Of a stretch of DNA of 64,000 bases, positions 2,220 to 64,000 are shown piece after piece. Source of the DNA: Tepidisphaeraceae bacterium (lineage in GTDB: Bacteria > Planctomycetota > Phycisphaerae > Tepidisphaerales > Tepidisphaeraceae); contig CBDCBA010000011.1 in assembly GCA_965214125.1 (NCBI GenBank), positions 1 to 64,000 on the forward strand. The letters are read 5' to 3'. Numbering within the stretch: position 1 is the stretch's first letter; each line of letters begins with the position of its first letter. A model generated the notes under the pieces. That model was not told the origin of the DNA. It saw only the letters and a program-made list of their open reading frames with translations, and ran no database searches. A program made the translations under genes and the position numbers.

Positions 2220-4067
2220 ATGGTCTTCTTCGTCATGCTTCTCGTCGGCGCTGCCCTGGCCGTGGGTCCGTGGTTCGTGCCGAACCTGAGCGGAACGGTG
2301 CAGTTGGGCTTGAGCATCATTGGCCTGCTCGTGCTGATCGCCGCCGCCGTCGCGGCCGTGGTGACCAAGCTTTACCATAAGGCGTCGGCCAACATGGCCT
2401 TCGTCCGCACGGGCATGGGCGGCGCCCGCGTCGTGAAGGACGGCGGCACGATCGTCCTGCCCGTCGTCCACCAGGTCATCCCCGTCTCCCTTGAGACGAT
2501 GCGCCTCAACGTCGAACGCCGCGGCACCCACGCGCTCATCACCAAGGACAACCTGCGCGTCGATCTTTCGGCCGAGTTCTACATTAAGGTCCAGGCTAAC
2601 AGCGACGACATCCTCAACGCCTCGCGCTCCCTTGGCGAGCGATCCATTACGCCCGGCAGCGTGAGCGAGCTTGTGCAGGAAAAGCTCGTCAGCGCCCTGC
2701 GCACCGTCGCCGCCACGCAGGAGCTCGTCGAGCTGCACAGCAAGCGCGACGAGTTCGCCAGCAAGGTGCAGGCAATCGTCACGCACGACCTCGCCAGCAA
2801 CGGCCTGACGCTCGAGAGCGTGACCATCAGCGCCCTCGACCAAACCGACCCAAGCCAGCTACAGGAGCGCAACGTCTTCGACGCCCAGGGCCTGCGCAAG
2901 ATCGCGGAGATCACCCAACGGGCCAAGGTCCAGCGCAACGAGATCGAGCGGCAAAGCGAGCAGGAGATCACGACCCGCGACGTAGCGACGCGGAAGGAAG
3001 TGCTCGATCTTCAGCGGGATCAGGCCGAGTTCGAGGCGGAGCAGCGGATGAAGGTCGCCAACGTGCAGGCGGGGCGCAAGCGCGAGCAGGAGGAGTTCCG
3101 CATCGCCCAGGAGGAGGCGGTCAATCGTCGCGACATTGAGCGGCAGCAGGCGATCGAGGAGGCCGAGGTGCAGCGCAAGCTCGCGGTCGAGCAGGCGGAG
3201 GTGGCCAAGCGGGTGGCGTTGATCGAGAAGCTTCAACAGCAGGAGACGGCCGAGGTGTCGAAGCAGCAGGCGATCGAGGTGGCCGAGCGTCGCCGCGAAT
3301 CTGCGATCGCCGAGCAGGAACAGGAACGTGCCGCCGCCCAGGCGCGGGCGCTGGAGGCCGAGGCCGAGAAGGAGCAGGCGCGACAAGACGTGCTGACCGT
3401 CGAGGTCAAGAGCCAGGCGGACCGGGAGGCCGCGCAGAAGCTTATCGCGGCCCAGCAGATCATCGACGAGAGCCGCATCCGCGAGCAGACCGAGGCCGAG
3501 GTCGACGCGTTCCGGGTCATCAAGAAGGCCGACGCCGAGAAGCAGTCGGCCGAGGCGCAGGCGGAGGCGAAGCTGCGGTTGGCCGAGGCCGACGCCAGCG
3601 CCGAGAGCAAGCGTGCCGAGGGCGAGCGGGCACGTAAGAGCGTGGACGTGCAGATCGAGCGCGAGCGTGTCGCCGTCGAGCGCGAGCGGGTCGAGGTCGA
3701 GCGCCAGGAGCTAGCCAACCGCAGCGAGTTCGAGGTGGCCGCGCTGGAGTTCGAGCTCGACAAGCTGCGCATCGCCGCCGACAAGGAGGCCCGCATCGCG
3801 GCCGCCAACGCCATGGGGAACATGATGGCCAAGGCGAACATGCAGATCTTCGGCGATCCCGAAACCATGGCGAAGATGAGCGGCCGCTTCATGAGCGCCG
3901 CCGGCTTCGGCAACGCTGCCGACGGCCTGCTCCGCAGCCTGCCCCCCGAGGCCAAGCAGTTGGTCGACCAGTTGCAGGGCAAGCTCGCCGACGTGCTCGA
4001 GCCGGAAAAGGAAGACGCTGCCAGTCCCAAGCCGGTCAAGAAGGGCGCGAACGGCAAGGCGACCTGA
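2220..4067 (+). CDS. Flotillin-like SPFH/band-7 domain protein (YqiK family)
   Basis: N-terminal TM segment, then SPFH core (ANMAFVRTGMGGARVVKDGGTIVLPVVHQVIPVSLETMRLNVERRGTHALITKDNLRVDLSAEFYIKV), followed by a very long E/A/R/Q-rich coiled-coil and a C-terminal hydrophobic/amphipathic tail; typical bacterial flotillin architecture. Confidence 0.9.
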   Translation: MVFFVMLLVGAALAVGPWFVPNLSGTVQLGLSIIGLLVLIAAAVAAVVTKLYHKASANMAFVRTGMGGARVVKDGGTIVLPVVHQVIPVSLETMRLNVERRGTHALITKDNLRVDLSAEFYIKVQANSDDILNASRSLGERSITPGSVSELVQEKLVSALRTVAATQELVELHSKRDEFASKVQAIVTHDLASNGLTLESVTISALDQTDPSQLQERNVFDAQGLRKIAEITQRAKVQRNEIERQSEQEITTRDVATRKEVLDLQRDQAEFEAEQRMKVANVQAGRKREQEEFRIAQEEAVNRRDIERQQAIEEAEVQRKLAVEQAEVAKRVALIEKLQQQETAEVSKQQAIEVAERRRESAIAEQEQERAAAQARALEAEAEKEQARQDVLTVEVKSQADREAAQKLIAAQQIIDESRIREQTEAEVDAFRVIKKADAEKQSAEAQAEAKLRLAEADASAESKRAEGERARKSVDVQIERERVAVERERVEVERQELANRSEFEVAALEFELDKLRIAADKEARIAAANAMGNMMAKANMQIFGDPETMAKMSGRFMSAAGFGNAADGLLRSLPPEAKQLVDQLQGKLADVLEPEKEDAASPKPVKKGANGKAT

Positions 4068-4115: not shown

Positions 4116-5408
4116 ATGACCATCGCCCCGCCCCGCCCGCCTGTTCCCGCGCACGTTGAGCCGGAGGAGGTTCGCCTCCACGCGGCCGACATGGCGGTGG
4201 TCGCGTCGGCGGACGTGACGCTGGGCCAACTCCAAGCTCAGCTCGCCACCGTTGAGCCGCACCCGCAGTGGTTGCCGATCGACGGCGACGAGGACGCAAC
4301 GCTCCGCGAACTTGTTGAGCACGACTCGACGGGCCCGCTGCGCTTGGGTTACGGCGGCTGGCGCGACCGGCTGACGGGCGTGCAACTTCTCGACGGCGAC
4401 GGCCAGCGCATCACCGCCGGCGGGCTGCCAGTCAAGAACGTCGCCGGCTACGACCTCGTCCGCTTCGCCGTTGGCGGGCACGGGTGCTTTGGGCGGGTCG
4501 AAACCATTACCGTCCGCACCGCCCTGCGACCCGAGGCGGGCCTGACGGTCGAACTGCCGATCGAGCAGGGCCAACTAACGACGACAGTAAACCGCCTGCT
4601 CGTCAGCAATGCCCCGCCGCAGTGGATGCTTTGCCGCGCCGGCCTCCTGCGCTGCGGCTGGCTCGGGGACGACGCCGACCTCGACGCGCTCGCCCCGGCC
4701 ATCCGCGCGATTGCGGGCGTCGCTGCGACGCGGCAATCGCTCGCGCAGGACGCCGCCCTGCGTCGCGTCGCGCTGGCGCCGGTCCGGGCGTGGGTGCCGC
4801 CGTCGGGGATCGAGGGGTTGCTGCGCGGGGCTGATCGTCCGGGGTCGGACCCAGCCGCAAGCGACTGGGCGTTCGGAGAAACGGATGGTGAACGGCGTGT
4901 GTGCGGGACACAGAATGCGTTGCCCGCATCGACTCCCGATTCAACGTCCACGTCGAGCCTTGGTCGGACGTCCACATCGAGCCCCGACTCAACATCCACA
5001 TCGACTCCCATTACGTCTCCCACATCGGCGAAAAATCCATTGTCCACGTCGACTCTCGATCCGTCTTCGACGTCGAACCTCGAACCGTTGTCTGCGTCGA
5101 CTTCCAATCCGTCACCCCCGTCGTTATCCGATCCGACGAACGCCCAGTCGCTTGCGGCTGGGTCGGGGCCCGATCCGCACCCCGACCTGTGGGCGGATCC
5201 CATCCACGGCATCGTCTACCTGCCCCACCTGCCTGACGATTGCGACACGATCCTCAACGCCGGCGGCCACGTGACGGCGGTCGAGGGGCACGTGGTGCGG
5301 GTTTGCTCGCCGCACGCCCCATCGCCGTTGCTATCGCCGTTGCTCGCGGCGTTGAAGGCGCGGTTCGATCCTGACGCCAAGCTGCCGGCCTTGCCGACAT
5401 ACGCTTGA
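4116..5408 (+). CDS. GlcE-like FAD-linked oxidase subunit (N-terminally short) carrying an in-frame ~300-bp repeat insertion
   Basis: AADMAVVASADVTLGQLQAQL...LPID and GGLPVKNVAGYDLVRFAVGGHGCFGRVETITVRT resemble the FAD-binding PCMH domain of glycolate oxidase GlcE; the C-terminus ends ...KARFDPDAKL. The next gene is glcF-like (4Fe-4S/CCG). Residues ~245-345 are an S/T/P-rich 8-aa periodic insert encoded by an IR-flanked element (see repeat 4848..5164). Confidence 0.65.
   Translation: MTIAPPRPPVPAHVEPEEVRLHAADMAVVASADVTLGQLQAQLATVEPHPQWLPIDGDEDATLRELVEHDSTGPLRLGYGGWRDRLTGVQLLDGDGQRITAGGLPVKNVAGYDLVRFAVGGHGCFGRVETITVRTALRPEAGLTVELPIEQGQLTTTVNRLLVSNAPPQWMLCRAGLLRCGWLGDDADLDALAPAIRAIAGVAATRQSLAQDAALRRVALAPVRAWVPPSGIEGLLRGADRPGSDPAASDWAFGETDGERRVCGTQNALPASTPDSTSTSSLGRTSTSSPDSTSTSTPITSPTSAKNPLSTSTLDPSSTSNLEPLSASTSNPSPPSLSDPTNAQSLAAGSGPDPHPDLWADPIHGIVYLPHLPDDCDTILNAGGHVTAVEGHVVRVCSPHAPSPLLSPLLAALKARFDPDAKLPALPTYA
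4848..5164. mobile_element. IR-flanked ~317-bp insertion-like element inside the glcE-like CDS (28-bp perfect terminal inverted repeats; interior of degenerate ~24-bp tandem repeats; lower GC)
   Basis: Left arm gacccagccgcaagcgactgggcgttcg (approximately 4848-4875) is the exact reverse complement of the right arm cgaacgcccagtcgcttgcggctgggtc (approximately 5137-5164). The interior contains ~8 degenerate units built on a gtccacgtcgaNcc/cgtcgac core, period ~24 nt. The host reading frame is open on both strands. Confidence 0.6.
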
Positions 5409-13299: not shown

Positions 13300-13359
13300 G
13301 CTGTTGCTTCGGCCTCTGAAGCCAATCTCTCCTCTCCGTGTCTCCGTGCTTCCGTGGTG
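13268..13359 (+). promoter_or_regulatory. Imperfect ~29-bp inverted repeat spanning the astD 3' end and the astB translation start
   Basis: caccacggaggcacggagacacggaggag (astD codons for PRRHGDTEE + stop) pairs with ctcctctccgtgtctccgtgcttccgtggtg, whose 3' end contains the GTG GTG start of astB; 32-nt spacer. Confidence 0.5.
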
Positions 13360-14715
13360 AACTACTCCGAATACAACTTCGACGGCCTCGTCGGCCCCAC
13401 GCACAACTACGCCGGGCTCGGCAGCGGGAACCTGGCGTCGATGTCGAGCAAGGCCAGCGTCAGCCACCCGCGGGCGGCGGCGTTGGAGGGCCTCTCGAAG
13501 ATGCGCCTCCTCGCCAACCTCGGCGTGCCGCAGGCGATCCTCCCGCCGCAACGTCGGCCACACCTAGGCTACCTGCGAAGCTGCGGGTACGGCAGTAAAC
13601 CGGCCGAGGTTCTTGAGAATGCCGCAAAGGCCGGCGACGCGGGTCGGCGCGATCTGGCGATTGCCAGCAGCGCCAGCAGCATGTGGGCCGCCAACGCCGC
13701 GACGGTCTCGCCCAGCCCCGACACGGCCAACGGCCGGTGCCACTTCACGATCGCCAACCTCGCCAGCCAGCGCCACCGGGCGCTGGAGTCGTTCGAGCGG
13801 CTGACGATCTTTGAGCACCTGTTCGGCGACGGGCGGTACTTCAAGGTCCACCCGCCACTGCCAAGCACGTTGCCGGACGAGGGGGCGGCGAACCACACGC
13901 GGTTGAGCGGCTTCGATTTTGAACTGGGCTACCACATCTTCACCTACGGGTTCGACGCGACATCCAGCCTAATACAAGGGAAGTTCCAGCCGCGACAATC
14001 GCTTGGTGCTTCGCGGCGGATCGCGGAGCAGCACGGGCATGTTTTCCAGTTTCCGTCGGGTGCCGAGTGCTTCGTGAAGCAGACGCAGGAGGCGATCGAG
14101 GCAGGCGTGTTCCACAACGACGTCATCAGTGTCGGCAACGAGTTCGTGCTGTTGATCCACGAGCATGCGTGGGTCAATCAGCCGACGGCGGCCGATGCCG
14201 TTCACGACGCCATGCACATCGCCGGTGTCGATGAGGTGCGGATGACATTTACAGACAAAGAACTGCCAATAGCGGAAGCGGTTCAGTCTTACCTCTTCAA
14301 CTCGCAGCTCGTCACGCTGCGTGGAATCAAGGGCGAAGACAACTGGGAGTGCAAGATGGTCCTCGTCTACCCCGCCGAGTGCGAGGAGATCCCGTCGGCG
14401 AAGGCGGCGATCGAGCGCATCCTGCGGGAGGACAATCCCGTCCAGCACGCCGTGCGGGCGGACGTCCGCCAGAGCATGCGCAACGGCGGCGGGCCGGCCT
14501 GCTTACGGCTGCGGGTCGTGCTGAGCGACGAGGAGAAGGCTGCTGTCCGCGGGAACGTCTTCTGGACGCCGGCGCTGCACGACACGCTCGTCGATTGGGT
14601 CACGCGGCACTACCGCGAAGCCCTCACGCCCGCCGACTTGGCCGACGTGCGGCTGTACGAAGAGAGCGAGACGGCCCTCGACGAGCTGGCGGAGATTCTG
14701 CAACTGCCGATCTGA
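13354..14715 (+). CDS. astB: N-succinylarginine dihydrolase
   Basis: VNYSEYNFDGLVGPTHNYAGLGSGNLAS closely parallels the AstB N-terminus ([24 protein letters not shown]); full-length ~450 aa. GTG start. Confidence 0.85.
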   Translation: MVNYSEYNFDGLVGPTHNYAGLGSGNLASMSSKASVSHPRAAALEGLSKMRLLANLGVPQAILPPQRRPHLGYLRSCGYGSKPAEVLENAAKAGDAGRRDLAIASSASSMWAANAATVSPSPDTANGRCHFTIANLASQRHRALESFERLTIFEHLFGDGRYFKVHPPLPSTLPDEGAANHTRLSGFDFELGYHIFTYGFDATSSLIQGKFQPRQSLGASRRIAEQHGHVFQFPSGAECFVKQTQEAIEAGVFHNDVISVGNEFVLLIHEHAWVNQPTAADAVHDAMHIAGVDEVRMTFTDKELPIAEAVQSYLFNSQLVTLRGIKGEDNWECKMVLVYPAECEEIPSAKAAIERILREDNPVQHAVRADVRQSMRNGGGPACLRLRVVLSDEEKAAVRGNVFWTPALHDTLVDWVTRHYREALTPADLADVRLYEESETALDELAEILQLPI

Positions 14716-14716
14716 C

Positions 14717-14790
14717 GTAGGGTGGGATTCATCCCACCATCGGCGGCGGGAAGGGTGCGACCACGGATGGTGGGATGAATCCCACCCTAC
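14717..14790. repeat. REP/MITE-like palindromic element, family A copy 1 (GTAGGGTGGGATTCATCCCACC...GGTGGGATGAATCCCACCCTAC)
   Basis: 22-bp arms that are themselves internally palindromic (tgggattcatccca), ~30-nt spacer; starts 2 nt after the astB stop. Confidence 0.85.
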
Positions 14791-14910: not shown

Positions 14911-17900
14911 ATGGATCAGGTCGCCAGCGCCCCACCGCCGTCCGAGTCCCCCGCCGCGCCCGTCCCGGCCGCGACGGCGACCGCCACGCAGTTCACCTGG
15001 CACGACGGCCGCCTCTGGCGCTGGTCCGCCGACGACGCCGGCACCGACCTGCGAGTGGGCTTGCCCGATGGCGAACGCCGTGTGGCCGCGAGCGTCGTCA
15101 CCGGCCGGGCGATGCTTGACGCCGTCACCGACCTTGCCCACGACGCCGCCGACTCCGCCCAATGCCTCGCGACCCTCGCGGAGTTCTCGCGAAACGCAGT
15201 CGCCTTGGAGCAGTTTTACCCGTCGGCCCGGCGCGCAGGTGGGCGGCACGGCGGCGTGGTTGCGTCGTGGCGGCTGCTCGTGGGGGACCCGTCGGACGTG
15301 GAGCGCATCGAGAGCTTTGCCGCCGCAATGCCGGCCGCGTGCTTCTGCGCGGACGAGCCGTTCCACGCGACCGACCGTCTTGAACTTGTCGAAAGCTTCC
15401 TCGACGCCTGCTGCGACACGATTGTGCGGCGAAGCTTGGCGAAGGACGAGTTCTTCGCCGGCGTTCACGAACGCGCGGCGGATCCGGTGGCGGACGTGGA
15501 GGTGCGCTGGGTCTCCGCCCTCGTGGCCGACCCGGATGAGATCGTCGAATCCCCCGAAAAAACGCTCGTTCGCGGTCGCGACAACGAGGTGGCGGAACTG
15601 CTCGACAAGGTGCAGACCTGGACCAGCCGCCTGGGCGACGCTGGCGGCGAGCCGTGGCGGCTGGGCTTCTTGCTCGAAGAACCCGCAAGCGACGACGAGA
15701 ACGGCGTCTGGCCGCTGCGGTGGCAGCTCTTGCCGCCGTTGGAACTTTCGGATCACCACGTGCCGCTACCGGCCGAACAGGTGTGGGAGCAACCCGCCGG
15801 CAGCATCGGCTACGTTGGGCGAAACGCGGTGCGGCTGCGCGAGCGGATGGGGGCCGAGCTCAAGCGGGCGGCCGAGGTGCTGCCACCGCTGAACGATCTT
15901 CTGGGGGAGTGGCCGGGGCGGGGCGGACCGTCGAAGCTGATGCTCGACGGGGGCAACGCCTTCCGCGTCCTGCGCGACCACGCCGAGGCCCTCAGCGACG
16001 CCGGCTTCGACGTGCAACTGCCCGGCTGGGCGAATCAGAAGGAAAACCGGCTGGAAGTGGTGATGGACCTTCAGCCAGCCGCCGGCACCGAGGAGGCGTA
16101 CGCGGCCTCGCAGGGGGCGCTCGGGCTCGACGCGCTCTTGACCTTCAACTGGAAGATCAGCGTCGGCGGGGACCAGATCACGATGGACGAGTTCCGGGCG
16201 CTCGTCGACCGGCAGGTGCCGCTAATCCGGCGCGGCGGGCGGTGGATCGAGGTCGACCCGCAGGCGGCGCTGGCGGCGGCCGAGATGATCGAGCGCCGCC
16301 CGCCGGGCACCATCTCGCTCGGCGAGGCCTTCCGTGCCGGCTTCGGGTTGGGCGAGTTCCGCAGCAGCAACGGCACGTCGCCGGCCATCCGACTTGAAGG
16401 GACCGAGTGGGTCGACAAGCTGCTCGAGCAGGCCCCGGACGACGCGGCCAAGGCGTTGCCGCAGCCCGAGCAGTTCACCGGTGAACTGCGGCCTTACCAG
16501 TTGCGTGGCTTACAGTGGATGGCCTTCCTCGACCGCGTGGGCCTCGGCGGCGTGCTGGCGGACGACATGGGCCTGGGCAAGACGATCCAGCTCATCGCCC
16601 TACTGCTCCACGAGCGCGAGCGCGCCAACGCCGCGAACGAAGCGAATGGCGATCAGGCCGTGCAGACGAAGCCGACGCTGCTGTTCGTCCCCACGAGCGT
16701 GCTGGGCAACTGGGCCCGCGAACTGCGTCGTTTCGCTCCGCTCTTGAAGGTCTTGCCCCACCACGGGCCGGGCCGCTCGCGCGGCGAACGCTTTGCCGAA
16801 GATGCCTCAAAGGCGGACGTGGTCGTCACGAGCTACGCCCTGTCGCATCGCGACCAGGAAGACTTGCGTCGCGTCCGCTGGGGCCGCGTGGCGCTGGACG
16901 AGGCGCAAAAGATCAAGAACCCGCAGGCGGCCAGCAGCATCGCGGTCCGCTCCATCGCCGCTGGCCGCAAGATCGCTCTCACGGGCACGCCCGTCGAGAA
17001 CCACCTCGGCGAGCTGTGGAGCATTATGGACCTGCTCAACCCCGGCCTGCTCGGCACGCAGGGGGAGTTCCGCGAGCGCTTCGCGATCCCGATCGAAAAG
17101 CACGGCGACCGCGCCCGCGGGCGGCGCTTGCGCGAGATGATCCGCCCGTTCGTGCTGCGGCGCACGAAAGACGAGCCAGAGGTCGCGGCCGATTTGCCGG
17201 CAAAGATGGAGATGAGCGTCTTCTGCGGCCTGACCGCTGAACAGGCGGCGATCTACGAGCGCATTACCAGCGATATGCTCGGCCGCATCGATACGGCCAC
17301 CGGCATCCGCCGGCGCGGGCTGATCCTGAGCGTGCTGACGAAGCTCAAGCAGGTCTGCGACCACCCGGCGCTGCTGGCCGAAGAAAATGTCGACAAGAAG
17401 AATCCCGATCAGGCCCAGGTGTCGATCAACCGCAGCGGCAAGGCCCAGCGGTTGGCGGAGATGCTCGAAGAGGTGATCGAGGAAGGGCAAAAGGCCCTGA
17501 TTTTCACGCAGTATCGCAAGATGGGCGATCTGCTCGTGCCGATGCTGGAGAAGGCGCTCAAGCGGCCGGTGCTGTTCCTGCACGGCGGCACGCCGCAGCA
17601 GAAGCGCGACGATATGGTGCAGGATTTCCAGAACATTTCCACGAAGGACGGCGGAGCGCCGATCTTCCTCCTGAGCCTTCGCGCCGGCGGACTGGGCCTG
17701 AACCTGACGGCGGCCAGCCACGTCTTTCACTTCGATCGCTGGTGGAACCCGGCCGTCGAGAACCAGGCAACCGACCGCGCCCACCGCATCGGCCAGACGC
17801 GCCGCGTGCAGGTCCACAAGTTTGTCACGCTCGGCACCGTCGAGGAGCGCATCGACAAGATGCTGGCGGAAAAGAGCGCCCTCGCCCAGAACATCGTCGG

Positions 17901-18057
17901 AAGCGGCGACGAATGGCTGACCGAGCTCTCCACCGGCGAGCTGCGCGAGTACCTGTCGCTGTCGCGGTCGGACCTGAGCGACCTCGACCTGGGTGATGAC
18001 GATGACGACGAAGAACTTCCCTCATCCGCCAGCCTCGCGGGCGTGGAGGCCGCATGA
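14911..18057 (+). CDS. SNF2-family helicase with ~500-aa N-terminal domain (SWIM-like Cys/His patch)
   Basis: [35 protein letters not shown] (motif I), DEAQKIKN (motif II), ...[10 protein letters not shown], and C-terminal helicase motifs ([44 protein letters not shown]). N-terminal [11 protein letters not shown] patch; a conserved [20 protein letters not shown]...[10 protein letters not shown] segment precedes the ATPase. Confidence 0.9.
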   Translation: [1048 protein letters not shown]

Positions 18058-21668: not shown

Positions 21669-21756
21669 CCAAACCGCGTTGCAACGCAACGCTGGTCCGG
21701 CTTTCCGCGTCGCTGCACGTTCGCTCAGACCAGCGTTGCGTTGCAACGCGGTTTGG
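21669..21756. repeat. REP-C copy 2 (29-bp IR ccaaaccgcgttgcaacgcaacgctggtc / gaccagcgttgcgttgcaacgcggtttgg)
   Basis: Lies between nth and the downstream membrane-protein gene on the minus strand; shares the aaccgcgttgc...gcaacgcggtt core with copies 1 and 3. Confidence 0.75.
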
Positions 21757-23233: not shown

Positions 23234-23291
23234 GCGGGCGGCAGCATAACGGGTGCGCGATCTGCGAAGTGGTGCCGCGGTTCTCTTTCGC

Positions 23292-23360
23292 GTTAGCCGC
23301 CCCGCCTCGCGGGGCGAGCGCGTGGCCATCGAGCGCCCCGCGAGGCGGGGCGGCTAAAGG
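23292..23360. repeat. REP-like palindromic element, family B copy 1 (TTAGCCGCCCCGCCTCGCGGGGCG ... CGCCCCGCGAGGCGGGGCGGCTAA)
   Basis: ~23-bp GC-rich arms with ~20-nt spacer, in the divergent region between the lpxI-like (-) and PqqD-like (+) genes. Confidence 0.8.
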
Positions 23361-45413: not shown

Positions 45414-46526
45414 TCAGGCACCAAAATATCGTGCGTGCGCAGAGCGGGCCGCCGACAGGTCGGTCGTGCCCTGCACGATCACGCGGGCGTCGCGGAAGGC
45501 GGTCATGCGGATCGATGGTCGATCGGCCGGCGTAAAGCGGAGCATCATCGGCGTCTGCGACACCTCGCCGAGCGGGCGGAGTTTCGCGGCGAGAATGTCC
45601 AGCTTCCACGTCGCGTTGGGCGTGCGAAGTTGGACCGCACCGCGGCCGCACAGGGCGACGGCGTCGCCTGCGGGTTGGTCGAGGAAAGGGAACTCGTGGC
45701 GGGCGCAGCAGGGACAAGTTGGGTCTTTCGCGGACGACAGGTCGATTGTGCGGAACTCGCCCGTCCAGACGTCGAACGCTTGCAACGCGCGCGGCGGGTC
45801 GCCGCTGACGAGCGTGCGAATCGCGAGGGCGGCCTGTAGATTGCCGACAATTCCCGACGCCGCCGCGAGGATGCCGGCGGTGTCGCACGTCTCCAACTCC
45901 CCCGGCGGCGGCGGATCGCGGAAGACGCAGCGCAGGCAAGGACCCGCCTCCGCCGTAGGGTGGGATTTATCCCACCTCTGGTTCGATTGATCCGACTCGC
46001 CGGATGGTGGGATGAATCCCACCCTACCCAGAGCCATCGCCCTTCCCTCCGTGCCGACGGCGGCGCCGTAGATCCACGGCTTGCCACGCTTCACCGCAGC
46101 GTCGTTGAGCAGGTACCGCGTGGCGGCGTTGTCGGTGCCGTCAACGATCAGGTTGGCCTCCTCGACGAGGGCGAGGACGTTGTCGACATCGACGTCGACT
46201 GGCCGCGGTTCGAGGGAAATCGAAGAGTTGACGCGCTGCAACCGCTCGGCGGCGGCGACGGCCTTGGGGCGGCTGTCGGTCGCGTCGGCTTCGTCGTACA
46301 GGGTTTGACGTTGGAGATTGGTCACCTCGACCAAATCGCGATCGATCAAGATCAGCCGGCCGACGCCGGCGCGGGCGAGCGAGTCGGCGGCAACGGTGCC
46401 GAGCGCCCCGCAGCCGAGGATGGCGACGGTAGCCTCCGCGAGCCGAGCCTGGCCGGCGTCGCCGATCTGCGGGAGAAGGGTTTGGCGGTGGTAGCGGTCC
46501 GGCACGGGTTCATAGGATACGGGCAA
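45414..46526 (-). CDS. ThiF/MoeB/HesA-family E1-like adenylyltransferase with in-frame REP insertion and ~100-aa C-terminal extension
   Basis: RYHRQTLLPQIGDAGQARLAEATVAILGCGALGT (Rossmann GxGxxG), LILIDRDLVEVTNLQRQ and two CxxC pairs (CLRC ... CPCC). Residues GRVGFIPPSGESDQSNQRWDKSHPT are encoded by REP-A2 (45955..46027). TTG start at 46526, or GTG at ~46505. Confidence 0.75.
   Translation of the reverse strand: MPVSYEPVPDRYHRQTLLPQIGDAGQARLAEATVAILGCGALGTVAADSLARAGVGRLILIDRDLVEVTNLQRQTLYDEADATDSRPKAVAAAERLQRVNSSISLEPRPVDVDVDNVLALVEEANLIVDGTDNAATRYLLNDAAVKRGKPWIYGAAVGTEGRAMALGRVGFIPPSGESDQSNQRWDKSHPTAEAGPCLRCVFRDPPPPGELETCDTAGILAAASGIVGNLQAALAIRTLVSGDPPRALQAFDVWTGEFRTIDLSSAKDPTCPCCARHEFPFLDQPAGDAVALCGRGAVQLRTPNATWKLDILAAKLRPLGEVSQTPMMLRFTPADRPSIRMTAFRDARVIVQGTTDLSAARSAHARYFGA
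45955..46027. repeat. REP-A copy 2, inserted in-frame within the ThiF/MoeB-like CDS
   Basis: gtagggtgggatttatcccacc...ggtgggatgaatcccaccctac; translated in the host frame as GRVGFIPPSGESDQSNQRWDKSHPT. Confidence 0.85.
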
Positions 46527-46957
46527 TGGCAGACGACACCCTCGACAAGGACATCCTCGACGCCGCCCAAACGCTCGGCGATCTCATCGCCAAGCACCCG
46601 GCGATCGAGAAGTATGCCGACGCCCAGAAGGCCCTGCGCGACGACAAGGACGCCGGCCGCATGCTCCAGCAGTTCGAGCAAAAGGCGATGGTCCTGGCCC
46701 GCAACGAGCAGTACGGCCAGCCCGTCAGCGCCGCCGACCGGCAGGAGCTCGAAACGATGCAGGCCAACCTCGCGAGCAACCTGCGCGTGAAGGCGTTCAG
46801 CATCGCCCAGACCGACATGACCGATTTGCTCCGCAAGGTCAGCCAGACGTGGCAGAAGCCCGTCGCCAAGGCACAGGGCGAAGACGATCAGCCGCAAGGC
46901 CAGGACGAGTTTGGCGGCGTCAGCGGCGGCGGTATGGGCGGGTTGCAGATGCCGTAG
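46526..46957 (+). CDS. YlbF/YmcA-like (DUF964) regulatory protein
   Basis: LDAAQTLGDLIAKHPAIEKYADAQKALRDDKDAGRMLQQFEQKAMVL...ELETMQANLASNLRVKAFSIAQTDMTDLLRKV follows the YlbF-family helical pattern; Gly-rich C-terminus. Its ATG abuts or overlaps the divergent ThiF-like start. Confidence 0.5.
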   Translation: MADDTLDKDILDAAQTLGDLIAKHPAIEKYADAQKALRDDKDAGRMLQQFEQKAMVLARNEQYGQPVSAADRQELETMQANLASNLRVKAFSIAQTDMTDLLRKVSQTWQKPVAKAQGEDDQPQGQDEFGGVSGGGMGGLQMP

Positions 46958-47025
46958 GGTGGGATTCATCCCACCATCGGGTCAACAAGTTGCTGCATTC
47001 GGAGGTGGGTTGAAACCCACCCTAC
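46954..47025. repeat. REP-A copy 3 (variant right arm ggtgggttgaaacccaccctac)
   Basis: Begins at or overlaps the stop of the YlbF-like gene; 9 nt before the EVE gene start. Confidence 0.8.
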
Positions 47026-47034
47026 ATTGTCGAC

Positions 47035-47436
47035 ATGGCCTACTGGTTGTTGAAGACGGAGCCGGATGTCTACTCGATCAACGACCTCGAGCGCGACAAG
47101 TCGACCGTTTGGGACGGCGTGACGAACAACGCCGCGCTGAAGAACATCCGCGCCATGCACCGCGGCGACGGGTGCCTGATCTACCACACGGGCAAAGAAC
47201 GCGCGGCCGTCGGTATCGCGAAGGTCACGAAGGGGCCGCACCCGGACCCGGCAGAGGACGACGAGAAGCTGGTCATCGTGACCGTGAAGTTTGTGAAGAA
47301 GTTTGAGGCGCCTGTCACTCTTGCGATGGTGAAGGCCGAGGAGCAACTCGCCGATTGGGACCTTGTCCGACAGTCGCGACTGAGCGTGGTGCCGGTGTCG
47401 GACGAGCAGTGGAAGTGGGTGTGTGAGAAAGGATGA
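47035..47436 (+). CDS. EVE-domain (PUA-like, DUF55) protein
   Basis: MAYWLLKTEPDVYSINDL...VWDGVTNNAALKNIRAMHRGDGCLIYHTG is the canonical EVE N-terminal pattern. Confidence 0.7.
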   Translation: MAYWLLKTEPDVYSINDLERDKSTVWDGVTNNAALKNIRAMHRGDGCLIYHTGKERAAVGIAKVTKGPHPDPAEDDEKLVIVTVKFVKKFEAPVTLAMVKAEEQLADWDLVRQSRLSVVPVSDEQWKWVCEKG

Positions 47437-47529
47437 AGGCAGAAGGATGAAGGATGAACCCGACCCGGAGCCGAGGCAGACGTCTCCGGTTCGGGCTCAG
47501 GTTCATCCTTCATCCTTCTGCCTTCATCC
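47431..47529. repeat. Large AT-richer hairpin: perfect 30-bp inverted repeat (ggatgaaggcagaaggatgaaggatgaacc / ggttcatccttcatccttctgccttcatcc) with a 39-nt loop that contains its own hairpin
   Basis: Left arm starts in the EVE-gene stop codon; right arm ends ~10 nt from the stop of the convergent MacB permease gene. The arms contain internal gaagga(t) direct repeats. Confidence 0.8.
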
Positions 47530-47538
47530 TTTCCGCGC

Positions 47539-57475: not shown

Positions 57476-57485
57476 CCGCGTGTCC

Positions 57486-57554
57486 GTTAGCCGCCCCGCC
57501 TTGCGGGGCGCGTGGCCGGCCACCGAGCGCCCCGCGAGGCGGGGCGGCTAAAGG
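57486..57554. repeat. REP-B copy 2
   Basis: Near-identical to copy 1 (gttagccgccccgccttgcggggcg ... cgccccgcgaggcggggcggctaaagg), in the divergent region between the GNAT gene (-) and the membrane-protein gene (+). Confidence 0.8.
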
Positions 57555-60582: not shown

Positions 60583-62034
60583 ATGCGACGCTTTTGCCTC
60601 CATCTCGCGATCGCCGCCGTGGCGTGTCCCGCGGCCCTCGCCTCCGCGCAGACCACGACGCCGTCGCTGGCCGACCTGGGCGACTTCGAGGACGCGGTGC
60701 GGGCATCGCGCGACGACCTGGTGCGTGCCGCCCGCGCGGACGCGGTGGACCGGCTCTTCCTGGCCGTCAAAGCCGAGGCGCTGGCGCCGGGATTGACCGT
60801 CGGCGGGATGCTCGGCCAGCTCAACGATGGCGCGGCCCGGCGCGTGCGGCAGGCGCTCGAGGACGCGCCGCAGATCGGTGGCCCACGGTTCGCAGCGCCC
60901 GGCACGGCGCAGGTGCAGCTTCAAGCCGGCGGCGAGTTGGTGGCCGCGGCGCTGCGGCGCGAGCTGGCCCGCGATGGCGCTGCCGATCGGCTGCCGGAAA
61001 GCGTCTCGTTCGCCCACATCGAGCGCACCCTGCGCCGCTGGACAGGCCGAAACTTCGTCGCGCTCGGCCGCAGCGTGACGCCGGAGATGGCGCTGGGTGC
61101 CCTGCCGCGCGACGGGGCGGGCACCAACTCGCGGATCGAGCCGCTCGACCCCGAAACCGGCTGGCCCGCCGTTCCCGATGAGGCGCGGCAGCGGGCGTTC
61201 GTCGAGGCGCGACGCGAGGTGATGGAGCGCCTGATGACCGCCGCCCGGCCGGTGCCGCTGGCGAGCGAGTCCGACGACCCCGAGTCGTCGCAGGAAGTTC
61301 CGGCCGGCACGCTCGGCGACCTCTTCGACCTCGGCCGCGTCGGCGAGCAGTCGCGTCGCTACCTCGCCGCCCGACCGGTCACGCGGATCGCCTTCGCCGA
61401 CGAGCGCCAGATCCGCGTGAGCCTGTCCCTCGACCCGGCGGACTGGGTGGCGCGGCTCCGCGGCGATTTGGAGGAGATTCCCAATGCCCCGGCGCTCGAC
61501 GACCGCCAGTGGGCGGAGGTCATCACACGCCTCGCCGCGGCGCTGCCGGAGGAGGTCACGGGCACCGCCGTCGCGGAGGCGCCCGGCGACGGATCGCCGC
61601 GGGTGGCCGATCCGGAGGCGAACACTTTGGTCGCGGCGTTGCGGCCGCTCGTCGATCCAACCGACGCCGCCGCCGTCGTGCCGCAGTGGTCCCGCCAGCT
61701 CATCGCCGCGACGGGGCAGGCGGGCTACGCAATCGAAGCGGACGAGCCGGATTGGCAGCAGTCGCGCAAGCGCCTGATCGCCGCACGTGCCGCCGAGCGC
61801 GACGCCCGCGCGGCACTGGTGGAGGCGTTGCGGGCGTTGCCGCTGGGCGAGCAGAGCACGCTCGGCGCCGTTGCCGACACCCACACGCCCACGAGCCTGC
61901 TGCTGGCCGCCGCGGCAGAATCGGCCACCGTCAAGGGCAGCGCCTACGACGACGCCAGCGGCCGTGTCGAGGTCTCGCTCACCGCCGACGGCCGCGCGCT
62001 GTGGCAGCAACTGATCTCCCTTGGCGGCAACTAA
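60583..62034 (+). CDS. Secreted hypothetical protein
   Basis: Signal peptide MRRFCLHLAIAAVACPAALASAQ; 483 aa, Ala/Arg/Asp-rich, no recognised domain. Lies between ispG and ispH. Confidence 0.5.
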   Translation: MRRFCLHLAIAAVACPAALASAQTTTPSLADLGDFEDAVRASRDDLVRAARADAVDRLFLAVKAEALAPGLTVGGMLGQLNDGAARRVRQALEDAPQIGGPRFAAPGTAQVQLQAGGELVAAALRRELARDGAADRLPESVSFAHIERTLRRWTGRNFVALGRSVTPEMALGALPRDGAGTNSRIEPLDPETGWPAVPDEARQRAFVEARREVMERLMTAARPVPLASESDDPESSQEVPAGTLGDLFDLGRVGEQSRRYLAARPVTRIAFADERQIRVSLSLDPADWVARLRGDLEEIPNAPALDDRQWAEVITRLAAALPEEVTGTAVAEAPGDGSPRVADPEANTLVAALRPLVDPTDAAAVVPQWSRQLIAATGQAGYAIEADEPDWQQSRKRLIAARAAERDARAALVEALRALPLGEQSTLGAVADTHTPTSLLLAAAAESATVKGSAYDDASGRVEVSLTADGRALWQQLISLGGN

Positions 62035-62083
62035 CGCCGATGTCGGACAAGCCTCGATCCGCTCGCGGCCGTACCGTCTGAGC

Positions 62084-63025
62084 ATGCGCATCTTGCTCGC
62101 CAACCCCCGCGGATTCTGCGCCGGCGTGCGGATGGCAATCGACGTGGTCGACCACGTCCTGCGCCACCAGGGGCCGCCGGTGTTCGTCTACCACGCGATC
62201 GTCCACAACAAGCACGTCGTCGACGACTTCGTCAGCCGTGGCGTGCGCTTCGTCGAGGACGTGGCCGCCGTGCCACGTGGAGCAACGGTCGTCTTCAGCG
62301 CCCACGGCATTCCCCCCGCCGTCCGTCAGCAGGCGGCCGAGCGGGATCTGGTCGTTCACGACGCGACGTGCCCGCTCGTTACGAAGGTTCACAACGAGGT
62401 CGTCCGCTACGCCCGCGAGGGATACCACATCATCTTCATCGGCCACCGCAACCACCAGGAGGCGATCGGCACGGTGGGCGAGGCGCCCGACGCAATGACG
62501 ATTGTTGAGACGCCCGAGGAGGCCGCGGTGTTGGACATCCCGCTCGACCAGAAGCTCGCGTACGCGACGCAGACGACGCTGAGCGTGACGGACGCGCAGC
62601 GGGTGATCGACGTGCTCGTGGAGCGTTTCCCGCACATTCGCCGGCCGCCGCGGGAGGACATCTGCTACGCGACGACCAACCGCCAGGACGCCGTGGGCGC
62701 TTGGGCGGCCGAGGCGGACGTCGTGCTCGTGGTCGGCAGCAAGAACAGCTCGAACAGCAATCGCCTCGTCGACCGCGCCGTCGAACTCGGCACGCCCGGC
62801 CATCTGGTGGATGATGAATCGGAGATCGACCCGCGGTGGCTCGATGGGGCCAAGACCGTGCTCGTCACCGCCGGCGCCAGCGCCCCGGAGGCGTACGTGG
62901 AGGGCGTTCTGGCCCGGCTCCAACAGGAGTTTGGTGCCCGCGTCGAAGAGCGCTCGCTGGCGGAGGAGAACGTGCAGTTCGCGCTACCGCGTACCGTTCG
63001 CAAGCTGGCGGTGGTGGGGTCGTAG
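62084..63025 (+). CDS. ispH: 4-hydroxy-3-methylbut-2-enyl diphosphate reductase (LytB)
   Basis: MRILLANPRGFCAGVRMAIDVV (Cys1), ...HDATCPLVTKVH (Cys2), ...DICYATTNRQ (Cys3), SSNSNRL. Start at M22 of the ORF. Confidence 0.9.
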   Translation: MRILLANPRGFCAGVRMAIDVVDHVLRHQGPPVFVYHAIVHNKHVVDDFVSRGVRFVEDVAAVPRGATVVFSAHGIPPAVRQQAAERDLVVHDATCPLVTKVHNEVVRYAREGYHIIFIGHRNHQEAIGTVGEAPDAMTIVETPEEAAVLDIPLDQKLAYATQTTLSVTDAQRVIDVLVERFPHIRRPPREDICYATTNRQDAVGAWAAEADVVLVVGSKNSSNSNRLVDRAVELGTPGHLVDDESEIDPRWLDGAKTVLVTAGASAPEAYVEGVLARLQQEFGARVEERSLAEENVQFALPRTVRKLAVVGS

Positions 63026-63042: not shown

Positions 63043-63105
63043 GTAGGGTGGGATTCATCCCACCTCCGGGTCCTCGTTCCGATGGTGGGATGAATCCCAC
63101 CCTAC
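63043..63105. repeat. REP-A copy 4 (shorter spacer)
   Basis: gtagggtgggattcatcccacctccgggtcctcgttccgatggtgggatgaatcccaccctac between convergent ispH and the HTH-receiver gene. Confidence 0.8.
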
Positions 63106-63122: not shown

Positions 63123-63707
63123 TCAGTACCGCACCTGCGTGGCTTTCTCGACGGCTTCGACGACGCGGCGGATGTGGAAGGGCTTCTTCAGGAAGGCGTC
63201 GAAGCCTTGATGGGTAAGGCGTTCGCCCTCTTCCTCGCTGAGTTGGCTGCTCATCGCGACGAGCTTGGTGAGCTGCAAATCGAGCGTGTGGCGGACAAGC
63301 TCCACCATCGCCTTGGGCTCGACGTCGGCGAGGTGAACGTCCACGAGGATGACGTGCGGCTTGGTCCGCCCCGCCGACACGCCGGCGGCGAAGGCGCTTT
63401 CGACGACCTCCACCTCGTACCGGGCCTCGTCCTCGAGGATCTTCTCGAGCACCTCCGTGACCTCGCGTTCGCGGTCGAGGATGAGCACGCGGGTGTTGCC
63501 GGTCTTGAGGCCGTTCAGCGGGATCGAGTGCTCCTTCATGAAGCGCACGAGCTGGTTGAGCGGGATGCGGCGATCCTTGGAGCCGGGAATGCGGTAGCCC
63601 TGGAGGCTGCCGGAGTCGAACCACTTGCTGACGGTGCGGGGGGCGACGTTGCAGATCTTGGCCACTTCGCCGGTGGTGAGCACGTCTTTGGCCTTGAGTT
63701 CTTGCAT
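63123..63707 (-). CDS. Response regulator with N-terminal MerR/excisionase-type HTH and C-terminal receiver domain
   Basis: LTTGEVAKICNVAPRTVSKWFDSGSLQGYRIPGSKDRRI (Xis/MerR-like HTH), then RVLILDREREVTEV...HVILVDVHLADVE...MSS...KP receiver. Start at M77 (GGAG 9 nt upstream); M39 at 63821 is an alternative. Confidence 0.65.
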   Translation of the reverse strand: MQELKAKDVLTTGEVAKICNVAPRTVSKWFDSGSLQGYRIPGSKDRRIPLNQLVRFMKEHSIPLNGLKTGNTRVLILDREREVTEVLEKILEDEARYEVEVVESAFAAGVSAGRTKPHVILVDVHLADVEPKAMVELVRHTLDLQLTKLVAMSSQLSEEEGERLTHQGFDAFLKKPFHIRRVVEAVEKATQVRY

Positions 63708-64000
63708 GGTCTTGGGCTCCGGTTCCGCGGCTTGCCGAGAGCGGCGTGCTGCGCCTCCATCGGCGGCGCCGTCGGCGTCGCTGTCGTGAGCGGGGGCGGT
63801 TGTCTCGGCGGGCTCCGGCATGGTTCTGGGGACACACGAGCGGCGGCATAGGTAGGCGTAGTTGCCCCTGCCGACGCAAACAGTTCGGCCGACCGGAGAA
63901 TCCCTCGCGATCGGGCCCCGCCGACTAGACGGCACGGGCGTTACCGTCCAAACCTACGACACGCCGGGCCGTCGTGCGGCGGGGAACACGCGAGCCTGCC

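Follow-up and report, generated by a model that had tools for sequence, protein, structure and literature searches.

The question raised by this locus is how a palindromic stretch of DNA, with further copies in the same sequence, came to lie in frame within the gene of a conserved enzyme, and what this has meant for that gene. The window, by which we mean the whole stretch of DNA analysed (64,000 nucleotides of a Tepidisphaeraceae bacterium, contig CBDCBA010000011.1; G+C content 68.5%), carries at 45955-46027 a 73-nt palindrome, running from GTAG to CTAC, within a gene for an E1-like adenylyltransferase of the ThiF/MoeB family. Taken together, our results make it very probable that a repetitive extragenic palindromic (REP) doublet, of the kind associated with REP-associated tyrosine transposases (RAYTs), has recently inserted in frame into a loop of the enzyme and is tolerated there.

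The insertion in the E1-like gene

The initial annotation had placed the palindrome wholly within the open reading frame (ORF) 45414-46526 and had it read through as GRVGFIPPSGESDQSNQRWDKSHPT, between ...GTEGRAMAL and AEAGPCLRCVF; both the reading and the flanks were as described. The alignment of orthologues that it proposed as a check returned a 24-residue indel at exactly this site between conserved flanks. The residues GRVGFIPPSGESDQSNQRWDKSHP were exclusive to the window protein and its identical database copy (P0001, 363 residues, recorded from one 74.5-kb contig), and were lacking from the 21 others of 22 homologues aligned, which at that point aligned with one another free of gaps. A REP-type peptide was found in none of the other 119 among the 120 best homologues, which argues that the segment is not ancestral.

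The closest relative, P0002 (339 residues, 84% amino-acid identity), is encoded on contig L001, which has the gene order EVE, YlbF, ThiF, phosphohexomutase in common with the window. Aligned at the DNA level, the two differed by a single clean gap of 72 nt (window 45957-46028, minus strand), corresponding to a net insertion of 24 codons that encodes GRVGFIPPSGESDQSNQRWDKSHP, the boundaries being defined by the alignment with an uncertainty of about 2 nt. L001 also carries an orthologous copy of the nearby doublet that separates the ylbF-like gene from the EVE gene; the REP family was therefore present before these lineages split, and the copy within the E1 gene is younger. The arms of this copy were one loop base off the window consensus, which agrees with a recent insertion, and parsimony over more than 100 homologues points to insertion rather than loss.

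The host gene lies on the minus strand at 45414-46505 in the deposited call, which gives a protein of 363 residues from GTG 46505, and its open frame reaches upstream to TTG 46526 (370 residues). The protein matched the Pfam ThiF family (PF00899) with an E-value of 8.4e-65 and 218.7 bits (cut-off 28.1), over 262 protein residues against 238 profile positions. NCBIfam MoeB/ThiF models matched two separate stretches of it, interrupted near residue 164; none of them reached its curated cut-off, and the best was of the uncharacterised PRK12475 type (274 bits against a cut-off of 510). The best structural matches of its model by Foldseek were ThiF (1ZUD/1ZFN) and MoeB (1JW9), with an E-value of 6.5e-26 against 1ZUD and TM-scores of 0.90 for the target and 0.60 for the query. 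All of the columns that are invariant in the family were kept, among them GxGxxG, the two CxxC pairs and the TCDTAG cysteine, and no frameshift or stop was found; the possibility raised beforehand, that the gene is already a visible pseudogene, was not borne out. Judged by dN/dS against L001, the gene shows long-term purifying selection (0.17 over the whole gene and 0.14 in the 80 codons flanking the insert, with a dS of 0.71). Beyond the ThiF/MoeB fold, a C-terminal extension of about 90 residues (residues ~270-363, window 45414-45700) was conserved, strand-rich and present in all close homologues. The E1 and ylbF-like genes are divergent, with start codons 20 nt apart (window 46505-46526), and the same layout was seen in L001.

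Anatomy of the repeat and its link to a transposase

The window contains four REP doublets of approximately 65-75 nt each, where the chance expectation is 0. The core GGTGGGATNNATCCCACC was matched 8 times, as these four doublets, compared to 0.01 expected from shuffles, and the 22-mer GTAGGGTGGGATTCATCCCACC, at three or fewer mismatches, was likewise matched 8 times compared to 0.00 expected. Each doublet consists of two inverted GTAG-headed hairpins, GTAGGGTGGGAT-NN-ATCCCACC, and in each of the eight units an unpaired GTAG precedes a hairpin with 8 bp in its stem (GGTGGGAT/ATCCCACC) and 2 nt in its loop. The GTAG heads faced outward in all four doublets, and the arms were conserved, while the spacers were unrelated and 19-30 nt long. 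In the doublet within the E1 gene, the left REP GTAGGGTGGGATTTATCCCACC (45955-45976) and the right REP GGTGGGATGAATCCCACCCTAC (46006-46027) enclose a spacer of 29 nt (45977-46005).

Three of the four doublets lie at or just past the 3' ends of genes. The first (14717-14790, 74 nt) starts 2 nt past the stop of ORF 13354-14715, upstream of a SNF2-type helicase ORF (14911-18057), and the last (63043-63105, 63 nt) lies between the 3' ends of convergent ORFs 62021-63025 (plus strand) and 63123-63935 (minus strand). These two are intergenic, as the initial annotation had stated of all three; the remaining doublet (46954-47025) is not strictly so: flanked by the ylbF-like gene (46526-46957) on one side and the EVE-domain gene (47035-47436) on the other, it overlaps the end of the former, whose stop codon is the TAG in the GTAG head (46955-46957). 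By gene call and alignment, the stop of the ylbF-like gene in L001 (around 1044-1046) is apparently also the TAG of a REP head; if true, the REP would have set the C-terminus of this YlbF-like protein since before the lineages split.

The second arm of this doublet, GGTGGGTTGAAACCCACC (47004-47025), has a compensated stem pair: compared to the consensus GGTGGGAT..ATCCCACC, which L001 has here, an A-T pair has become T-A, with both sides changed. The other arm of the L001 copy has an uncompensated C-to-A change. Across nine distinct REP units, a set that was hand-picked, ascertained and small, stem pairing was retained in 95.8% of cells and both-sided changes were seen in four of the eight stem pairs; these compensated changes are only suggestive of pairing that has been kept. 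An Rfam scan of the whole window matched no family to the element.

A GTAG head, a short perfect stem-loop, inverted doublets and sites after the 3' ends of genes are the hallmarks of GTAG-tagged REPs and of REPINs, the doublets that REPs form (PMC3733652, PMC8266576). By its sequence, the element is a non-autonomous GTAG-tagged REP doublet of the REPIN type. The initial annotation was right to call it a palindromic repeat; what it had left as an unnamed 'family A' can be given this class, with the same sequence flanking a RAYT gene elsewhere. That gene came from a scan of JGI metagenome contigs with CGTAGGGTGGGATTCATCCCACC, which led to contig L079 (Ga0163144_10176080) with seven exact copies, two upstream of the RAYT gene (as a doublet, 425-530) and five downstream (1172-1348). 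The RAYT ORF (540-1148, 202 residues) matched Escherichia coli TnpAREP (PDB 4ER8) with an E-value of 3.9e-32 and Pfam Y1_Tnp with 1.1e-06. Since the exact REP sequence of the window flanks this gene, the sequence forms part of a REPtron, and the REP of the window is thereby tied to a RAYT gene. A neighbouring ORF of the same contig (11-421) gave a weak Cas2-like Pfam match, just under the cut-off. RAYT genes also adjoin the REP core on L024 and L043, which we did not use as the main REPtron evidence, L043 being flanked mainly by a related variant, GTAGGATGGGGT..ACCCCATCC.

TnpAREP binds single-stranded REP DNA; it cannot cleave this DNA without the GTAG, and the E. coli enzyme depends on the GTAG for binding as well (PMC8266576). 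By analogy, the doublet in the E1 gene would have been mobilised in trans, by a RAYT encoded elsewhere in the genome and by way of single-stranded hairpin DNA. The junctions (...CCGCC/GTAGGG...CCCTAC/CCAGAG) contain no duplicated bases, and the palindrome of 73 nt has lengthened the gene by a net 72 nt. The lack of a visible target-site duplication argues against a classical miniature inverted-repeat transposable element, derived from an insertion sequence (IS) and bearing terminal inverted repeats, and fits IS200/IS605-like chemistry.

The REP sequence is not confined to the window. Among the genomes of the GTDB species set, at least 75 stretches (L002-L076) contained the 20 specified bases of GTAGGGTGGGATNNATCCCACC, compared to approximately one expected by chance. 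The hosts among the matches listed include Planctomycetota (Tepidisphaerales, Kuenenia, Pirellulales and Sedimentisphaerales), Rhodobacterales, Pasteurellaceae (Haemophilus and Aggregatibacter), Pseudomonas/Stutzerimonas, KSB1 and Cytophagia. A 22-nt REP core was common to several phyla, and head-out doublets had identical arms and spacers that matched the base composition of the host. Two candidate readings of this identity across phyla are a very slowly evolving group of RAYTs and horizontal transfer.

Probable tolerance of the insert and the alternatives

In the course of events that we propose, the doublet would have entered the E1 gene after the split from the nearest sampled relative, and the inserted copy would not have been lost, its harm to the cell being too small. 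The insertion may have been tolerated because the net gain of 72 nt is exactly 24 codons and because it occurred where only a short connection leads from the final strand of the adenylation core to the zinc site with its first CxxC; the insert would be translated, as GRVGFIPPSGESDQSNQRWDKSHP, because on each strand only one of the three frames of the REP has a stop. The forward arm is open as RRVGFIPP and VGWDSSHH, the third frame being stopped by the TAG of GTAG; the reverse arm is open as WWDESHPT and GGMNPTLR, and its third frame holds a TGA. This agrees with the earlier description of the element as stop-free in several frames. The further claim, that the peptide RVGFIPP recurs in shadow ORFs at the other copies, held for two of them (46954-47025 and 63043-63105), and the same frame was open at all three.

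The suggestion that the insert adds a surface loop fits two AlphaFold models, with and without the insert. The AlphaFold2 model with the insert (from an alignment of 105 sequences) had a mean predicted local distance difference test (pLDDT) score of 92.5 and a predicted TM-score of 0.89, and its only low-confidence blocks were at residues ~161-190 (pLDDT 66/54/71), which had no regular structure. This region lies between strand 153-159 and helix 191-194, the helix that starts the first CxxC. The model of the insert-free orthologue had the same succession of secondary structure, with 7 residues (pLDDT 97-98) joining strand 153-159 to helix 167-170, so that the connection grows from 7 to 31 residues between the two models. 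The site corresponds to residues ~162-168 of E. coli MoeB, just ahead of Cys172, and the equivalent loop in Chaetomium Uba4 is naturally about 10 residues longer. The insert is therefore predicted to form a disordered loop that leaves the E1 fold intact. We infer that the enzyme with the insert is still active and that it carries these residues as a tolerated passenger, not as an adaptation.

Several points weigh against this account of a recent and tolerated insertion. The nearest orthologue is just 80% identical in DNA, and the exact junctions, any target motif and the choice between insertion and precise loss in L001 are therefore matters of parsimony. The dN/dS ratio is an average over the whole branch and is silent on the period after the insertion, so the same ratio would be seen if the insertion were very recent and had mildly harmed or inactivated the gene. 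No RAYT was found in the 64-kb window, either by a scan for HUH/Y motifs or by tblastn with three RAYTs from other loci, and the sequence comes from a single assembly.

We consider it unlikely that the insertion has inactivated the E1 gene and made of it a pseudogene in waiting, in which stops and frameshifts have yet to accumulate. The insert has hardly diverged from the family consensus and is hence young, and the period since its arrival is the one that dN/dS cannot resolve. The insert with short flanks, folded as RNA, reached -54.2 kcal/mol compared to -31.7 ± 3.3 for shuffles (z = -6.8); the E1 mRNA is thus predicted to carry a strong internal hairpin, which could hamper translation. However, the net gain is exactly 24 codons in a stop-free frame, all invariant residues are retained, Uba4 has a longer loop at this site and the insert leaves the predicted fold as it was. 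Published intragenic REPs are, moreover, mostly in genes that are thought to be functional (PMC3733652).

The generality of such inserts was examined in loci from other genomes, in which approximately 90 element sites were checked for long ORFs spanning a REP, followed by Pfam. Long ORFs in L006, L028, L035, L039, L042 and L068 had no Pfam match and were treated as spurious high-GC ORFs. Two real genes spanned a REP, namely tilS (L073) and purL (L055). In the Tepidisphaerales metagenome-assembled genome (MAG) L055, PurL is about 80 residues longer, in frame, than solved PurL structures, the addition lying between its two halves (3178-3424); the segment terminates in a single REP, GGTGGGATGAATCCCACCCTAC, read as GGMNPTLR, and Pfam gave nothing significant for it. 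In L073, a low-GC planctomycete MAG, tilS contains one REP, cgtagggtgggatttatcccacc (2421-2443), which is translated as RRVGFIPPS and separates the substrate-binding domain from the C-terminal one.

TilS homologues at 58-74% identity had REP-like peptides at the same site. Single units were seen in L073 (GGGAT-TT-ATCCC) and L091 (about 11000; GGGGC-TT-GCCCC), whose stems differ by compensated changes, and L093 (about 11004; GGGAT-TT-GCCCC) represents a half-way state between paired forms. The sites of L092 (9954-10026) and L094 (3790-3862) are head-out doublets of about -40 kcal/mol, and that of L095 is a decayed remnant. No other REP copy was found on the TilS contigs (5.6-21 kb). The clade comprises low-GC (38-43%) planctomycete genomes of at least six species, with pairing preserved in most members, which suggests, at the level of sequence, an old in-frame insertion whose hairpin has been partly retained. 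It is conceivable, though doubtful, that intragenic REP/REPIN hairpins in Planctomycetota are retained by selection at the level of the nucleic acid, for example as docking sites for RAYTs or as mRNA structures; if true, TilS would show an old stage of this process and the E1 insert its youngest.

The TilS clade also bears on the idea that the E1 insert has been co-opted, either as a new loop near the zinc site that alters partner binding or as a regulatory hairpin in mRNA or DNA. The clade-wide, in-frame REP of TilS, with pairing kept in most of its members, indicates that intragenic REPs can be long-lived; also in favour of co-option, the hand-picked set of REP units suggests that hairpins of the family keep their pairing, with compensated changes in four of eight stem pairs. 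The E1 insert, by contrast, is found in one genome only and is absent from its closest relative, and it is low in model confidence and without predicted structure, and we regard co-option as quite improbable. It is least credible of all that the protein has had this segment from its ancestors or that the assembly created it at a repeat: one metagenome-type assembly and a protein on record from a single contig leave some room for it, but the alignment of 22 homologues, all others of which lack the segment, refutes the ancestral reading, the arms match three dispersed copies but for one loop base, and both flanks belong to the same gene in correct order and frame, which a repeat-induced mis-join would not give.

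Known systems and further repeats of the window

A tolerated in-frame REP insertion is a known phenomenon, and what is known of REP behaviour is unchanged by our study. Intragenic GTAG and CGTC REPs, mostly dimers encoding 20-30 residues, were catalogued in several species by Di Nocera, De Gregorio and Rocco (2013, BMC Genomics 14:522; PMC3733652), with GTAG cases most numerous in Opitutus terrae, of the Planctomycetes-Verrucomicrobia-Chlamydiae (PVC) superphylum. The statement in the initial annotation that such in-frame colonisation is rarely reported outside Rickettsia was, in this light, too strong. The same authors reported several REP families and many tyrosine transposase genes in Rhodopirellula baltica, and proposed that REP inserts are possibly neutral by sitting in loops or linkers (PMC3733652). 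The E1 insert resembles these REP-decorated proteins in its short GTAG stem-loop, its inverted dimer, its in-frame insertion of 20-30 residues into a known gene, its proposed position in a loop or linker and the association of its sequence with a RAYT gene. It differs in the host gene (ThiF/MoeB), in the uncultured high-GC planctomycete host and in the REP sequence; neither this sequence, nor its peptide, nor ThiF/MoeB was found in the text or supplements of PMC3733652. With our study, REP-decorated proteins come to include an enzyme of the ThiF/MoeB type, from a planctomycete-like lineage that is uncultured and high in GC. The locus offers a clean, datable case in which a selfish palindromic repeat adds residues to a conserved enzyme without destroying it, with the states before (the orthologue) and after both available, each with a structural model. 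It also carries a warning for annotation, as peptides of the RVGFIPP, WDESHPT or GGMNPTLR type mark REP DNA, whether in spurious ORFs or in real proteins.

The window element shares with the REPs and bacterial interspersed mosaic elements of E. coli, and their TnpAREP, a GTAG and hairpin of the kind that is the substrate of a single-copy HUH-Y1 enzyme, the inverted doublet and copies that are mostly downstream of genes. In Pseudomonas fluorescens SBW25, Bertels and Rainey (in 2011) reportedly described REPINs in which the mobile unit is the inverted doublet. Unlike the E. coli elements and the REPINs of SBW25, which are described as extragenic, the copy in the E1 gene is intragenic. The stem of the E. 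coli REP is bulged, whereas the REP of the window, with its perfect 8-bp stem and 2-nt loop, is closer to the short group 3 REPs (PMC8266576).

The initial annotation had likened the insert to Rickettsia palindromic elements (RPEs), and the likeness stands for in-frame insertion into a gene that stays intact, though the element is of the GTAG-REP kind and not of the RPE families. As summarised in the literature, RPEs are palindromic repeats of about 150 bp that lie in frame in unrelated housekeeping genes and are compatible with the protein fold (Ogata et al. 2000, 2002, via PMC10969869 and PMC3733652). RPE-4 and RPE-6 are given there as CGTC-tagged REPs, a tag without a known dedicated transposase, and RPE-1 as longer (PMC3733652). 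Compared by these descriptions, the window element is like the RPEs in being palindromic, in frame and inside an intact gene, and unlike them in being 63-74 nt long, GTAG-tagged and linked to a RAYT.

The window contains further repeats that are unrelated to the REP. A G+C-rich palindrome of 70 nt was present in two copies at 90% identity (23291-23360 and 57485-57554), and a 29-nt inverted repeat at 21669-21756 is perfect, its arms being 30 nt apart. Two longer inverted repeats were also seen, one at 4840-5172 with 60-nt arms and a spacer of 213 nt, and one at 47427-47533, just past the EVE gene, with 47-nt arms that are 91% complementary.

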